From Bdellovibrionota bacterium (GTDB taxonomy: Bacteria; Bdellovibrionota_C; UBA2361; OMII01), in the NCBI GenBank assembly GCA_044356215.1, contig JBIKWQ010000028.1, forward strand, positions 1 to 41,215: 41,215 nt of DNA, written 5' to 3'. Of this stretch, positions 9,001 through 18,000 are shown in pieces (position 1 is the first letter of the stretch; each line of letters begins with the position of its first letter). Position numbers: made by a program.

Positions 9001-12000
9001 TCTTGGGATTGGCTCAGTGCTGCCAGGCATGGCTCCACATAGCTTATACTTCTCCTTTCCCCCCCCTCTTTTTTCTCGCCGCTCTCTTTGTACAAAAAGG
9101 ACCCGCCGAGGTTTTTATTCAAACAAAGAGGCCAACGAGAACGGACAGAGGGGGATACTGAAGGCGCGGCTTATACCTTACCCTCGCTGTGATCGCTGTT
9201 CAGGATTAACGAATTGCTCATTTCGTTACAAAGAGAAAAAGGGAACAGCGAGCCGGAAACGGGCCATAGCTACTTGTTGTCCTGAACCCTCTATGTGAAG
9301 ACTTATCGCCCAGGATGCTGGTAATAGTCAGACGCCCCTATCCCCCAGCCCTCTTAGCGCGGAGCCCTCGTCTTGTTAGTTCTTTAATTACAGTCTCGCA
9401 ATGATCTCCTTGCAGCTCGAGGACTCCATCTTTCTCAGCTCCCCCTCCTCCAGCCAGACGTTTGAGGTCTGAGAGGAGCTGCTTTAACTGCGGAGTGTTC
9501 ATGGCGACACCCGAGATAGTAGTGACCGTCTTGCCTGCCCTGCCCTTGTTCTCACGACGGACCTTGATATCTCCGTCACCCTTTATTAGTTGTTTCCTGA
9601 GAGCACCGCACTTACAGCTAGAAATTGGCTCAGAGCACCCGCTGCAGATTGCGCCCTTGTCAGTGGAATAAACTTCTCTATACTCTTCACGCTTTGTCAT
9701 AGATAGACCCCCTTGAGATTTACCCCCAAAAGCTGCGACTTAAAGAGCCTATCGTCAACCTTCCGTAGCGTCCTATGGTGACTGGTGGTGAGGAGATTAA
9801 AGTGCCTTCTTTTTCCGAGCATCTCAACTATCTTATCGCCTACCGAGTCGTCGCACTCCCAATCGAGCCGGGCAGGATCAGGCAGCTTAAACGGGGAAGA
9901 AAATGCTCTGAGCGACTTATCTCCCCTCATGCTAAAATAGAGTTCAAAGTAAGAGAGCACTAATTCCCTCGGGCTCCTAAATATCGGCTCCCTAAAGCGT
10001 AAACCCGGAAAATTTGATTTGGCGACAGCACCCCAGTACCCACGCCATTTATAAGCGCAGATCATGTGGTCATCGTCGTCTTCTGCGCAAAGATCAATAA
10101 GAAACGGCTCGCACTTTCCCCGCTTCAATGCCGCCGCGGCTAGCAACGAACCATCAAAGCAGTGGGCTCTGCCGTCTCTAAGGGCCGCTTTCGCTGAGAG
10201 ATGGCCATCTTCGCACCTGTAAGGAAGTGAGTCTACTAAATCCTGGGCACGATCGGGTGTTGAAGACTTAGAGAGAATAGCCAGCTCCTGTTTGCTCCAC
10301 GCAGCATTGATTTTCTGTGTCTTCATACAGTACATGCTGTGGGCTTTCCCAACCTACGTCAAGCCCAACGGTCACTACAATGACCGCGACGACCACAAAA
10401 TCCGGTGAGTAATTACGCCCCACGAATGGCCCCGATCTCTCGCAAGACCGCCGCGGCCGCTTCAAAGAGTTCGACCGGAATCTCGGTGTCTAGTTCAACG
10501 GCCTCGAGAGCGGAACATAGACCTTCCCTCTCTACGATCGGAATACCGTGCTTCCGGGCGCAGCCGACGATAAAATCCGCCACTTTGTATTCTCCGCGCG
10601 CTGCTAATACGGGAGGCTGCTCATCACCGCCAGGAAGCTCTAACGCGAATGCTTGATAGTACTTATTGCTCATCGACATTTCCCCCTTTTATTACATAGG
10701 GAAAGCCGGCAAAACCCCTCCCTAGGGAGTGATCGGTCGATAATCTAAAAAGTTGCGCAACTACCCACGCTCGCTAGATCGGTCGCGAATCTTGTTGATA
10801 ACTTTCTCTAGACACCAAACAGTTATCGGCTTCTCTATGTGATAGATGCCTGTATGGTCGGGGGTTTCTTGCCCGTCTCTAACGGGCTCCCCTTCAGCTG
10901 CCCGAGCGCTCTTGTAGCCTTGAGAACATAAACATATTACCGAAGCCTTGGGGCAGGCAGAAGCGACCTCCTTACAGGTCAAACTACCTTGCGCTCCAAG
11001 CCCCTCTTTATCTAAGAGAATAATGTTCCACGCGTCCTGCTCACGCTCAATCAGTTCACGAGCTTGCCGCAAATCAAAAACCCCGCGCGCGACACATCCG
11101 AGAGATTCGAGAGCACTGCTGACGAAAGGTTGTACCCCTGACTCAATACCAAGGAGTAGGACCCCTACTGGCTTACTCTGACGAGTCGACTCAGCGGAGT
11201 TTTTATTCTGTCGCTCATTGCAAACTATCGGCAGGTACACACTGAAAATAGACCCCTCTCCCTCGCGGCTGTGAACGGTAATCGCTCCATCATGCTCACG
11301 TATGATCGAATAGGCGGCCGCCAATCCGAGTCCGGTTCCTGACAGGCCGACCCCCGTGTCGCGGTCAATATTTTTGGTTGTAAAAAAAGGCTCGAAGCAA
11401 CGACTAGCCGCCTCCTCGTTCATCCCGACACCGTTATCTCTCAAATCGATTCGCACATACGACCCCGGTGAGATATCAGGCCCTAAATCCCCACTTCTTA
11501 TGATAACTGAATGAGTCGATATCGAGACCTCGCCACCTTCGGTGTCGCCGATAGCGTCTTTAGCGTTAGCCAGCATATTGGTGATCACCTGTTGCAGCTG
11601 ATTAGAATCCGCTAACAAAGCGATCCCCTCTGGTAACTGGTCGTCTACAATCAGATTGATATCGCGGCCTAGAAGAGATCCATACAGCTCGCGCGAATCG
11701 CGCAAGAATGACGAGAGATCAATCTTAATCCTTTTTCGTGCCCCCTTCGCCGCGAAGTTAAGAAGTTGCGATACAAGAGAAGCGCCCCGCATCGCCGCGT
11801 CACTAATCACTTTAGATGCTTCAGCGACTCCCTGATTACCCTTCGCTTGAAGCTGAATCAGCGACACCTGACCAACTATAGTCTGCAGTAGATTATTAAA
11901 GTTATGCGCCACTCCAGAGGCAAGCAGCCCCGCTGTTCTCATCTTTACCGCATTCGCCATCTTGGTTTCAAACCGACCAGCTATCATAGCGGTCGCCATC

Positions 12001-15000: not shown

Positions 15001-18000
15001 GGTAGTACATGATAACTCTCCGCGACCGATGCCATAGCTCGGTCAAATAATCCAAGTTGAATGGACAGAGTAAGAACAACCAAACGGCTGAAAGCCGCCA
15101 TATCTGAACTCTGCTGTTGGTTAAGCGGGTCAATGATTGAACCTATCGTCTGACCGCGAGCCGTATCTAAGAGCTCTCCAAACATCTCGGCTGATTCAGT
15201 AAGGAAACGAACTGGCGCCGCTATTATTAGCCCGGTGATAAACTCAGGGATGAGAAATAGCAATGACGAATATTCACTGACTTTGCATGAATCGCCTAAC
15301 GCTAAGGCCAATAGAACTGAGATGAACAGTCGCGGAAGTGTTTGAAGCGCGTCCCCTAGCGGAAGACCCACAAAGAGTCCGAAGATACGAGCGGATGCAG
15401 CTGAAATATTCAAAAACTCTATCATCCGCGCCACCTATCTTCCATTTAGGCTACTTGTCAGCGAGAACGCTCGATAGAACACCTCCTCTAAGAGTACATA
15501 TCCCTGCTCACCGCAGACAATAAGCACCGCCGCGAAGACAGCTAGTCTGGCCAAGTGCGTTAGACTCTGCTCTTGAACCTGTGTAATGGCCTGCAGAACC
15601 GTGACTAAGCCAGCGCCCATCGCGATAGCTGTCATCGGAATTACCGACAGAAGAATCACGACAGTCAGAGCCTCTTGTATTAGATCTTCCATAATCAGTG
15701 GTATGCCTGGACCAGATTTTTTGTCAGCAATAACCAACCATCGGTTGAGATAAAAAGAAGTATCTTAATCGGAAGGCTGACTATGACCGGACTCATCATC
15801 GTTAGCCCCATTGCTACCAGTAAGTTTGCGATAACGAGGTCAATTACGAAAAACGGGATTAGAAGAAAGAATCCCAAGGTAAATCCTCTCTTGATCTCAG
15901 AGAGTACAAACGCGCCAACGGCGACGCTTGTTGTAACTTCACCCTTCATCTCGGCTGTTTCGGCAGAAGGCTCCTCTCTTCGTGCTAATGCGGTAAAAAC
16001 GGCCAATTCCCGCTCTCCACTGTGACTCAACAGAAATTCCCTCCAAGGTGCGATGACTGGGCTCACTGAGTTCTGCAACGAAGCGATTGAGATCGACTTA
16101 AGCTCCTCAAGCTTTACATCAGATGCGCGCGCTATCGTCCGCTCAATAACAGGAGTCATTACCGTTACAGACATTACCAGTGACAACGCCATCACGAGCG
16201 CCGCGCTAGGAGCTTGCTGCGTGCCGAAACCACTTCTTAGCAATCCTAGAACGATCGAGAACTTTAGGTAGCAGGTGCCCACTGAGATCATCAGAGGAAC
16301 CGCCGCGAAGCCTAAGCTTAACAGTAAGAGAACCTCAGGAGACAGCGATTTCATCTTGCTCTCCATCTTCTAGAACTGTGCGCTTTGCGCGCCCTTTCTT
16401 TGGGCCATCTGAATCGCTCCGCGCCCACTCGATACTTCCGATCTTAAGACCTAGAGCGCTCAAGCGCGCCTTAAGCAACTCACTTTCACCCTTCGCCCCG
16501 AGAGTTGGTCTAATAAAGCCCTGCTCGATAACCACCTTAAGATCTCCTGTTCTATCTTTGGCTATAGAGAGAGAAAGTGGTGCCTGATGGCCTAGCGAGC
16601 ATTTTATTGAAAGCATTGGCAGATCGGCGACATTAGAGAAACCGACTCTCTCGATTCGCGGGGATGGATCTATTCGGGTTGGCAACTCCCCGGGCCGAGT
16701 CTCCGATTTATTCGTTGAAGTCCCAACCAGAGTACATTGCGGCGAGTTGTTTAATGAATTGCTCTCACCACCCACAATCCTAAGGCTTCTAACCGCTCGA
16801 TTAGTCGCGATAAGCTCCGACAACTCGTCGGACACATTTGATTCCGCGCGCGTTTTGGCCTGTATCTCACTCTTAGCTATCATCTTCTCAAGCAGAGTTA
16901 TTCGTTCACGAGAGCTACTCGCCCTCGCCATTTGAGAGCTAAGATCCGCTGTCGCCTCCTTGTGTGACCTTCGCGCGACAACCATCTTCTCCTGGGCCTG
17001 CTGAAGACGTTGTAGCTCAGTGCTGACTATTTTGCCGTATTCATGAGAAACCTTAGGCGAATCGGTTTGCGCACCCGAAGTTTGAAGAGCTGAACCGACT
17101 CTGCTTAATTCGGACCAAAGGTTTTTTGTGCTCTGGTCAAGGTCGGCGCGTTTTTTCGCCTCCGTCTCCGCGTACTGACGCGCTGTTTTGAGATCGGAGA
17201 GGTATAAAATTTCGGAGCGAAGAGTTTTAGCTCTAAGAACATCTGTTCGAATCATAGTCCCAGCCCTACTGGTTCTGCTGTAACTTACGAACGGATGCAA
17301 CCGCGCTCTCTGATACCTTAGAAACCAGCTCGACTCTAAGTTGATACTGCCCGATATCGGCCTGAAGTTTGAGCAAGCCTGAGAGGTGGTCCAGTGATCG
17401 CTCAGGGCGCACCCCCGGCGCGGCGCTCATCTTAGATAATTGGGATACCCTAGAGAGGATCTCTGACCAGCTTGACAACTCGGTGGCTTTCGCTGACTCG
17501 CTCGGTATTAGCCGAGCCAGATCAAGGGGCTTATTGTGAATAGATTCAGTCGCACGCATATCTCCTCCGCTGTTAGTACGCAGGAGATATGTTCGGAGGG
17601 TTAGGGGAAGAAGTTGCGTAACTGGTCAGCGGATTTCTTAGATCGTCTGGGTTTGAGTCAATCTGTCTGTCACAGGCCTTAGATGTCACTTCTCTAGCTT
17701 TGTTAACATCCTGCGCTGGGCTGTCGTTCTAAGTATTCGGTTAAACGGATGAGCCACAGTACCGAAAGAAAGACAAGCCCTGTTAAGGACTTTAAGGTTA
17801 AACAGCTTGTTGAAGGTATAAAACGCAAGAAAAAGTGTGCTCCTACTCAAAAGCAACCTACTGTCACTCTACACATAAAAGAGATGGTTGGAGAGATCCC
17901 CCCTACTCTTCAAGGCTTACGCAACAAGGCGCTATTACTCCTTGGGTTCTCTGGGGCGCTACGGCGCAGCGAGCTAGTTGGGATCGACGTTGAGGACCTT

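Follow-up and report, generated by a model that had tools for sequence, protein, structure and literature searches.

A type III secretion switch protein, SctU, encoded by two genes that flank a histidine kinase gene

Few features of type III secretion are as conserved as the autocleavage of SctU/FlhB at the NPTH motif, whose role has been disputed for two decades. In the window analysed here, a stretch of 41,215 nucleotides from a Bdellovibrionota bacterium, the two parts of this switch protein are encoded apart. At positions 10413–17559, all on the minus strand, a PAS/GAF histidine kinase gene separates an upstream SctU N-piece from a downstream SctU C-piece. The operon reads sctI, a FliK/SctP-like gene, sctR, sctS, sctT, the SctU N-piece, the kinase and the SctU C-piece, and all open reading frames were found on this strand where an earlier survey of the genome had placed them.

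The first gene of the operon encodes an SctI-like inner-rod protein of 97 residues (17266–17559, minus strand), matched weakly by Pfam T3SS_basalb_I (E 6.7e-4) and by the NCBIfam SctI model (E 0.009); a positional orthologue is present in most relatives' loci. It is followed by gene X (16335–17300, minus strand), which encodes 321 residues with a coiled-coil N-terminal part and a β-rich C-terminal domain. Three export gate genes come next on the same strand: SctR (15695–16366; 223 residues), which matches Pfam FliP (E 2.3e-51) and the NCBIfam EscR/YscR/HrcR model NF009438 with 190.9 bits, above its cut-off of 179; SctS (15435–15737; 100 residues; Bac_export_3, E 5.7e-11); and SctT (14706–15434; 242 residues; Bac_export_1, E 1.6e-23).

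Gene X evolves fast, and the window's own copy has no Pfam match. Among its order-level orthologues, 7 of 19 match Flg_hook (PF02120), all with scores under the cut-off (best E 4.8e-4), and this is the one family that recurs. For the C-terminal domain, the AF2 model has a pLDDT of 81, and its best Foldseek match is the switch domain of PscP (5cuk; E 0.018, probability 1.0). With VIA against 996 chains, FliK_C (2rrl, Z 5.3) ranks first and 5cuk (Z 5.2) second, both poorly separated from the others. Gene X is probably a T3S4 ruler of the FliK/SctP type.

The SctU N-piece (13921–14703, minus strand; 260 residues) covers positions 2–256 of the 335 of Bac_export_2 (E 1.1e-31) and scores higher with the NCBIfam SctU model (95 bits) than with the flhB model (77 bits). 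It has four hydrophobic (membrane) segments, followed by a conserved cytoplasmic linker and by the final β-strand ahead of the cleavage loop, and the linker residues Glu-214, Gly-220, Pro-222 and Arg-228 are invariant in alignment A1. The C-terminal cytoplasmic domain is not on this chain; it is encoded by a separate gene 3.2 kb downstream (10413–10679, minus strand), equivalent to the post-cleavage domain SctU_CC/FlhB_CC and supported by alignment A2 and by its match to Bac_export_2 positions 262–333 (E 1.5e-11). This C-piece has 88 residues when counted from the first ATG, and the 86 given in the survey correspond to a start at the second methionine. Its best NCBIfam model is flhB_rel (TIGR00789; E 6.1e-13), with 48.8 bits under a cut-off of 117.35.

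The position of the break, within the NPTH loop, follows from the Pfam coordinates and from an alignment with the FlhB of the same genome. The tail of the N-piece aligns with the FlhB strand preceding NPTH and ends 9 residues beyond this conserved strand, so the split lies within the loop as claimed, but not exactly at NPTH to the residue. Among the orthologues, the lengths of the N-piece tail and the C-piece head vary by about 0–25 residues. No NPTH motif was found in the window's pieces or in the relatives' N-piece tails and C-piece heads inspected; it is absent from all 36 C-pieces and N-piece tails examined. The motif is retained in the only other Bac_export_2 gene of the genome, an intact FlhB of 368 residues in the flagellar cluster on contig C71. 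The loss of NPTH from both SctU pieces noted in the survey is thus borne out.

The gene between the pieces (10761–13889, minus strand) encodes a sensor histidine kinase of 1042 residues with PAS, two GAF, HisKA and HATPase_c domains and a non-conserved tail. Its one hydrophobic stretch falls within the second GAF domain, and the kinase is probably soluble. All 36 aligned orthologues keep the H-box histidine, the N-box asparagine and the glycines of G1 and G2. A spacer of 31 nucleotides (13890–13920, minus strand), as read from the sequence, separates the N-piece from the kinase, and the two genes are in different reading frames. The spacer between the kinase and the C-piece (10680–10760, minus strand; 81 nucleotides) contains, in this order, a weak hairpin of terminator type at the stop codon of the kinase gene (10770–10755), found in a scan that is unspecific, one copy of a REP-like palindromic repeat that occurs genome-wide in at least 45 copies, and a G-rich Shine-Dalgarno sequence. 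Read depth was raised at 10692–10724 in four runs. In most relatives' loci the intergenic gaps are short or replaced by overlaps of 1–8 nucleotides. The gap between N-piece and kinase is mostly below 90 nucleotides, or there is an overlap of 1–4 nucleotides, and in many loci the kinase and C-piece genes overlap by 4–8 nucleotides. Three loci carry 2–3.4 kb of extra DNA between kinase and C-piece.

Relatives across an entire class of uncultured freshwater bacteria share the divided SctU. The order N-piece, kinase, C-piece occurs in 35 of 40 fetched loci of this class; in two others the kinase is absent and the N-piece and C-piece genes overlap by 4 bp, two more run off the end of their contig downstream of the kinase, and one (L094) has no C-piece within 12 kb. 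N-piece and C-piece thus lie in one operon in 37 of 40 loci, and the split at the autocleavage loop is ancient and conserved. Two lineages keep the split yet lack the kinase, so the split form does not depend on it. Across 35 families of the class the reading frames remain open. A profile search with the N-piece against 1.84 billion protein representatives gave 11,625 matches at E ≤ 0.001, and the best 150 of these 11,625 were all 252–290 residues long; in a word-indexed search, 46 of 58 matches had 269 residues or fewer. Among the 40 listed of 109 strain-level differences, synonymous and non-synonymous changes numbered 9:3 in the C-piece, 13:4 in the kinase and 3:2 in the N-piece.

Assembly of the two pieces, for which the survey had no complex prediction, was then modelled. 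Solved structures exist for autocleaved SctU/FlhB C-domains, and the model score of 0.65 (0.64–0.65 between runs), compared with 0.01 for the best control, may partly reflect memory of these structures. Among solved complexes 116 of 157 attain such a mark, as do 2 of 215 mismatched pairs. The runs share at least 88% of contacts, and the pLDDT of the partner is at least 71. In the modelled interface, N-piece residues 243–257 contact C-piece residues 5–15 and 46–56, so that the last strand of the N-piece is predicted to sit between two strands of the C-piece. The model thus favours reassembly.

The most probable explanation, which we hold with good though not full confidence, is that the two genes encode a functional SctU that arose by ancestral fission and reassembles non-covalently, with the kinase gene inserted early. 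In the ancestor of the class, the sctU gene of a T3SS with no detectable secretin or needle would have been split within the NPTH self-cleavage loop. The membrane-bound N-piece would retain the linker and the last β-strand ahead of the loop, the soluble C-piece would provide the remainder of the cytoplasmic domain, and strand complementation would join them into the same two-chain protein that autocleavage yields. With a two-chain SctU obtained from separate genes, the NPTH chemistry would have been free to be lost. The gene of the PAS/GAF kinase, whose product is probably soluble, would have been inserted early between the halves, to be co-transcribed and often translationally coupled with them. 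The gene order, the site of the break, the missing NPTH, the conservation and the intact kinase motifs are observed; we infer that the pieces assemble and that the machine is active, and the kinase may have a role in it.

Such a protein resembles the autocleaving SctU/FlhB proteins (YscU, EscU, SpaS, HrcU and FlhB) in its family, Bac_export_2, its four-segment membrane domain and its linker, and the predicted end product, a membrane-bound part with a non-covalently held C-terminal piece, is also alike. Here, in contrast, the break is genetically encoded, NPTH is absent and a kinase gene usually lies between the halves. Laboratory forms have already shown that a two-chain SctU can work without autocleavage in place. 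Precleaved SpaS is reported to be fully functional and protease-cleaved SpaS is a further such form (PMC4620466), and HrcU_C works in trans with HrcU 1–264 (PMC3040844). The survey's premise that self-cleavage is a conserved requirement had thus been softened in print. These forms are engineered and retain NPTH-region residues, and HrcU_C without NPTH is reported to lose HpaC and HrpB2 binding (PMC3040844), whereas the split in the window is natural, ancient and NPTH-free. A different rearrangement of export gate gene boundaries is the fused FliR-FlhB (NCBIfam PRK12772), in which neighbouring genes are joined, the opposite of the fission seen here. No published case of a natural split SctU was found in the literature; the precedent for a two-chain SctU comes from the laboratory forms.

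The export gate SctRSTUV, the ATPase SctN with SctL, SctJ and SctQ were all found in the genome, with the extra T3SS genes dispersed over several contigs. SctV is present in 61 of 61 genomes. The grouping of the dispersed sctV/Q/J and sctN/L genes into one machine, proposed in the survey, is still made by elimination, although the sctV operon is conserved in 14 of 14 fetched loci. For the T3SS secretin SctC, TIGR02516 gave 119.8 and 89.3 bits in the 96%-complete genome, below the cut-off of 238.45, and these matches, to two proteins about 960 residues long, are confined to the generic secretin domain. The needle subunit SctF had no PF09392 match at E ≤ 0.1 in this 96%-complete genome, a search that small, fast-evolving proteins can escape. 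What the survey called a second non-flagellar T3SS would more aptly be termed a T3SS for which the models used revealed neither a T3SS-type secretin nor a needle.

By gene content, the system resembles the Myxococcus xanthus T3SS* and the 'Myxo' NF-T3SS of Abby & Rocha. Here as there, the export gate, ATPase complex, SctJ, SctI, SctQ and LcrH/TPR-type genes are present, no secretin or needle was found, and each genome has two variants, one with an SctD-like gene (PMC3459982, PMC10433427). As a lead on placement with the Myxococcales systems, an atlas cluster of Bac_export_2 proteins of about 235 residues is labelled Myxococcota. A Myxo-type T3SS* would also be expected to work together with a Tad-like (Kil) pilus, and on contig C131 of the genome an FlhA paralogue adjoins Tad genes. 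Those descriptions, as far as available, mention no split SctU or embedded kinase for T3SS*, and the genes of the window's organism differ in being dispersed over several contigs. The Myxococcus T3SS* is reported to function in predation (PMC12075869, PMC10433427).

Other readings of the locus can be weighed against these data. The survey's reading is a dosage switch. The C-piece would be dosed on its own and act as a removable lock on export in the early mode, and the kinase transcribed with it, or the spacer elements, would set its level and so decide the secretion mode in place of a ruler-triggered event. This is in line with the available account of Chevance et al. 2026, in which the cleaved FlhB C-domain holds the flagellar apparatus in its early mode until it is expelled at the switch, and removal of both this domain and Fluke locks late secretion (PMC13344023). 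The frequent overlap of kinase and C-piece genes also agrees with it, and in this species the weak hairpin and the REP-like repeat could uncouple expression of the C-piece. In the two lineages without a kinase, however, the 4-bp overlap of N-piece and C-piece suggests roughly equal expression and not independent dosing, and within the window's order the probable ruler gene kept in the operon means that ordinary ruler-driven switching may persist. We consider a dosage switch unlikely. Considerably less probable still is that the C-piece is a stand-alone FlhB_CC paralogue of the FlhX type, in the service of the flagellar FlhB or of some other system, with the N-piece working alone or defective. 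The best NCBIfam model of the C-piece is indeed that of FlhX (H. pylori HP1575), stand-alone family members of about 87–95 residues are widespread in atlas clusters, and FlhX, likewise a small soluble post-cleavage C-domain protein acting in trans, is cited as partly replacing FlhB_CC in H. pylori (bioRxiv 10.1101/2021.08.29.457346, PMC3040844). Yet the flhB_rel score is far under its cut-off, the C-piece lies in the N-piece operon and in two loci directly abuts the N-piece, and its partner in the complex model is the strand of the N-piece. FlhX is a 'spare part' beside an intact cognate FlhB, whereas the window's C-piece lies in the sctRSTU operon; the flagellar FlhB has its own C-domain and NPTH, and the cognate SctU lacks such a domain, so that the small gene is the only source of it.

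A decaying system, in which the kinase gene disrupted sctU as a step of pseudogenisation, would fit the dispersal over several contigs, the failure to find a T3SS-type secretin or needle, the weak SctI match and the fast evolution of gene X. The degenerate relic considered in the survey is nevertheless very improbable given the frames preserved across the class, the universal SctV and its conserved operon, the invariant catalytic motifs of the kinase and the mostly synonymous changes among the differences listed; by analogy, the predatory function of the comparable Myxococcus T3SS* may also speak against decay. Mis-assembly, or read-through or frameshifting to one fused polypeptide, has a negligible probability, and no evidence in its favour was found. 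In four metagenome assemblies, made in four other studies, contigs run across both gene junctions with no joints or frameshifts, so the split is not an assembly error, and the out-of-frame spacer in the window and the 1–8-nucleotide overlaps in relatives argue against recoding.

On the preferred reading of a reassembling two-gene SctU, the class offers a natural, NPTH-free evolutionary experiment. It fits the view that only a chain break is needed, and suggests that the break matters and not the self-cutting chemistry. The SctU C-domain, recently proposed as an ejectable inhibitor of late secretion, becomes open to study as a separate gene product, and the conservation of the kinase between the halves points to a regulatory link not described before. 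To our knowledge, T3SS*-like machines have been reported only from Cystobacterineae, and needle-less T3SS have been studied only in Myxococcus predation; such systems may be far more widespread than reported. A broader proposal, tentative and rather doubtful, is that T3SS*-like machines are widespread outside Myxococcales and that throughout this class synthesis of the removable C-domain, as an independent gene, is coupled in translation to a PAS/GAF sensor kinase of the cytoplasm, so that the supply of an 'early-mode lock' would let the internal state of the cell decide what a needle-less, predation-type T3SS exports.

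The eight genes of the T3SS operon form a tight row, all on the minus strand. They code for an SctI-like protein (17266–17559, 97 aa), gene X (16335–17300, 321 aa), SctR (15695–16366, 223 aa), SctS (15435–15737, 100 aa), SctT (14706–15434, 242 aa), an N-terminal piece of SctU (N-piece; 13921–14703, 260 aa), a histidine kinase (10761–13889, 1042 aa), and a C-terminal piece of SctU (C-piece; 10413–10679, 88 aa). The two pieces match Pfam Bac_export_2 at positions 2–256 (E 1.1e-31) and 262–333 (E 1.5e-11) of 335, respectively. NCBIfam scores favor the non-flagellar models for SctR (190.9 bits on the EscR/YscR/HrcR model, cut-off 179) and for the N-piece (95 bits on the SctU model versus 77 bits on the flhB model). 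In the genome, which is 96% complete with 3.24 Mb in 131 contigs, Bac_export_2 is otherwise matched by a single gene, coding for an intact FlhB of 368 aa on contig C71.

When aligned with this FlhB, the N-piece ends 9 residues past the strand preceding NPTH, and the C-piece starts a few residues ahead of the strand following it. The NPTH motif itself is absent from both pieces. Because the alignment places the break in the NPTH loop and the motif is gone, the survey's finding of an SctU split at the autocleavage site is correct as an observation, except that the break is not residue-exact. Read-through or frameshifting into a fused polypeptide was rejected, since the genes do not share a reading frame. 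Both gene junctions are bridged, with no joints, by contigs of four metagenome runs (lake or aquatic), which belong to four studies, none flagged as a possible source. Indels in these contigs are limited to a single base in the spacer, an in-frame triplet in the kinase, and a single base downstream of the C-piece. Among the 40 strain-level changes listed of 109, the ratio of synonymous to non-synonymous changes is 9:3 in the C-piece, 13:4 in the kinase, and 3:2 in the N-piece. The split is real, and it is neither an artefact nor a relic. The DNA of the window is present in lake and river metagenomes, which fits a freshwater origin, and none of the 24 runs listed as carrying it is an RNA run.

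To place the split among relatives, 40 loci were fetched, 20 from the same order (5 of the same genus, 15 of other families) and 20 from other orders of the class. The arrangement N-piece, kinase, C-piece is found in 18 of the 20 same-order loci; in three of these 18 an additional 2.0–3.4 kb separates the kinase from the C-piece, and one has a shorter kinase of 579 aa. In the remaining two genomes (G026 and G036), the N and C genes overlap by 4 bp and the kinase is missing. The other orders have the same arrangement in 17 of 20 loci, with two more ending at a contig end after the kinase. In the last (L094), a C-piece was not found within the locus. Downstream of its kinase (contig C23 of G059, 7255–8719) lie another SctT-like gene and one for an SctU_N-like protein of 234 aa (E 9.5e-13); G059 is a small genome of 1.7 Mb. 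The N tails of the relatives always end just past the same strand, and the C heads inspected in the fetched loci contain no NPTH. The gaps between operon genes are short and overlaps of 1–8 nt are common, which suggests that the N-piece, kinase, and C-piece genes are a single translationally coupled unit.

A profile of the N-piece was matched in all 96 genomes surveyed (those of the phylum that are at least 85% complete, all of one class, 35 families), a count that includes matches to FlhB. Three genomes of the same genus (G002, G003, and G017) have an FlhB-type match only, and each has a C-piece on a short contig. Of 1.84 billion cluster representatives, 11,625 match the profile at E≤0.001; the lengths of the 150 best matches all fall within 252–290 aa. 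Public annotation calls such short SctU proteins simply FlhB or SctU. The genome collection, queried with a single protein, gave no more than 13 FlhB loci of Alphaproteobacteria, all unrelated. Atlas clusters of Bac_export_2 proteins of 235–267 aa are labeled Planctomycetota and Myxococcota, and short SctU forms may occur in these other phyla. Some genomes of the order also have extra stand-alone FlhB_C-like open frames of 99–118 aa outside the T3SS operon (G037:C3:236839–237048, G026:C140:3428–3652, and G025:C1:29298–29507), possibly a true FlhX-type paralogue.

One complex prediction was made, using the N tail (residues 198–260) and the C-piece, each with an alignment of its orthologues. The complex score was 0.65 in three runs (0.64–0.65), and that of the best control was 0.01; 116 of 157 solved complexes reach the mark applied, as do 2 of 215 mismatched pairs. 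Contact agreement between the runs was at least 88%, and the pLDDT of the partner was at least 71. The predicted contacts are between residues 247–252 of the N-piece, in the conserved strand, and residues 10–13 and 46–50 of the C-piece, with an expected error of ~1 Å. This arrangement is that expected of an autocleaved SctU C-domain. Because structures of autocleaved SctU C-domains have already been solved, the predicted complex indicates likeness to such a domain rather than binding, and it may stem from the memory of the model.

Gene X, located between sctI and sctR, has a conserved β-rich domain at its end in the order of the window. The only recurring family is Pfam Flg_hook, the switch domain of FliK, which 7 of 19 orthologues match (best E 4.8e-4); the gene X of the window itself has no Pfam match. 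The AlphaFold model of the C-terminal domain has a pLDDT of 81. With Foldseek against 350,542 chains, the top match of this domain is the switch domain of PscP (5cuk; E 0.018, probability 1.0). A second fold comparison, with 996 chains, ranks FliK_C first (Z 5.3) and PscP second (Z 5.2), both poorly separated from unrelated entries. The gene X profile has no meaningful match among PDB sequences, the best being PspA (E 0.019). Given the Flg_hook matches and the FliK_C and PscP rankings, a T3S4 ruler has probably been retained in the operon of this order; proteins of this class act on the C-domain of SctU. The gene between sctI and sctR codes for 211–373 aa with a T3S4-like end in the order of the window, and for a 150–200-aa coiled-coil protein in the other orders (L083–L102). 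The latter is SctO/FliJ-like by appearance only.

Other probable components of the machine are encoded elsewhere in the genome. Contig C70 holds genes for a FliA-like sigma factor, SctJ, SctQ, SctV, a TPR protein, and a REC-HisKA protein. The operon from the sigma factor and SctJ to SctV and the TPR protein is kept in 14 of 14 fetched loci, and SctV is present in 61 of 61 genomes of the class. Contig C9 holds SctL and SctN, adjoined on the opposite strand by a second FlgE-like gene of the hook/rod family (L080:8378–9727, 449 aa), which also lies beside a patatin-Omp85 protein. Its product could be a substrate or axial part of a needle-less system. In this 96% complete genome, no needle family was matched at E≤0.1 and no T3SS-type secretin was found above the cut-off (238.45 bits; two generic secretins score 119.8 and 89.3 bits). 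In content, the gene set is similar to the 'Myxo' systems of Abby and Rocha, which have neither secretin nor needle and occur in short and long variants (PMC3459982). It is likewise similar in content to T3SS*, the needle-less T3SS of Myxococcus xanthus, which is reported to act in prey lysis together with the Kil pilus, a Tad-like pilus (PMC12075869, PMC10433427). An extract of a 2025 review describes Kil/T3SS* co-occurrence as apparently restricted to Cystobacterineae (PMC12428579).

A third, more divergent set is present on contig C111 (L081:49–6256), comprising an FHA/YscD-like (SctD-like) protein of 533 aa, SctJ, an SctQ-like protein, SctR (E 3e-29), and SctS (E 1.5e-8), the E-values being from the HMMs of this analysis; two small genes and a TPR gene are also there. 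SctT and SctU models have no match at this locus, where two membrane proteins of 191 and 194 aa hold those positions, and there is no accompanying C-piece. Contig C131 (L082:8250–15187) carries a third full-length paralogue of FlhA/SctV (701 aa). It immediately adjoins genes of a Tad pilus (two T2SSF, T2SSE, RcpC/CpaB, and Flp pilin), with a Ser/Thr kinase nearby. This neighborhood recalls the partnership of Kil (Tad) and T3SS* in Myxococcus.

The operon's kinase contains PAS, two GAF, HisKA, and HATPase_c domains, and Pfam finds nothing at E≤1 in its first 200 and last 159 residues. The kinases of class-level loci are orthologous (E 1e-106 to 1e-247), and the H-box His, the N-box Asn, and the G1 and G2 motifs do not vary among the 36 kinases aligned. 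The receiver-like tail of the kinase in the window is not conserved among relatives. The REC-HisKA protein that closes the C70 operon (L079:7220–7927, 235 aa) is without an ATPase domain and could serve as the kinase's partner in a phosphorelay. It is a lead only, since no more than 7 of the 14 loci have the gene downstream of sctV (L103–L106, L111, L112, and L114). In this species alone, the spacer between the kinase and the C-piece contains a weak hairpin and one copy (10692–10724) of a REP-like palindromic repeat of ~28 nt. With up to 5 mismatches allowed, the genome contains 45 or more copies of this repeat, over which depth is elevated in four metagenome runs. Because the terminator scan is unspecific (19 sites versus 8.0 ± 3.1 in shuffles), little weight can be given to the hairpin, which lies at the kinase stop. 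Hairpin and repeat could modulate expression of the C-piece.

We consider it likely that the two genes encode a functional SctU, in which the N-piece and C-piece would reassemble by strand complementation and NPTH would have been lost because the chain break is now genetic. This reading agrees with laboratory results: SpaS that is precleaved or cleaved by a protease is reported to be fully functional, and cleavage itself not to be the signal (PMC4620466), HrcU_C is active in trans (PMC3040844), and FlhX can partly replace FlhB_CC (as cited in PMC3040844 and bioRxiv 10.1101/2021.08.29.457346). The most economical history would be a fission of sctU with insertion of the kinase in the ancestor of the class; two families would later have lost the kinase secondarily and retained the split. 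The survey had instead proposed that the level of the C-piece, set by the kinase, controls substrate switching. That model is made more plausible by the report of Chevance et al. (2026) that the cleaved FlhB C-domain inhibits late secretion and is ejected at the switch (PMC13344023), but it is weakened by the two lineages that lack the kinase and in which the N and C genes overlap.

FlhB_CC genes that stand alone and splits made by engineering are already known, whereas no report of a natural split SctU or FlhB was found in the literature searched. The portions of the T3SS* and T3SS-evolution literature consulted mention no split SctU, and the papers found on SctU and Myxococcus do not deal with a split.

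A type I-F CRISPR-Cas locus adjoins the T3SS operon, with a phage-integrase-family gene (17749–18444) in between. Its array (18565–22600) has at least 62 repeats at 60-nt spacing, and the cas genes (22717–30650) code for Cas1, Csy4, Csy3, Csy2, a 416-aa protein at the Csy1 position, and a Cas2-3 fusion.
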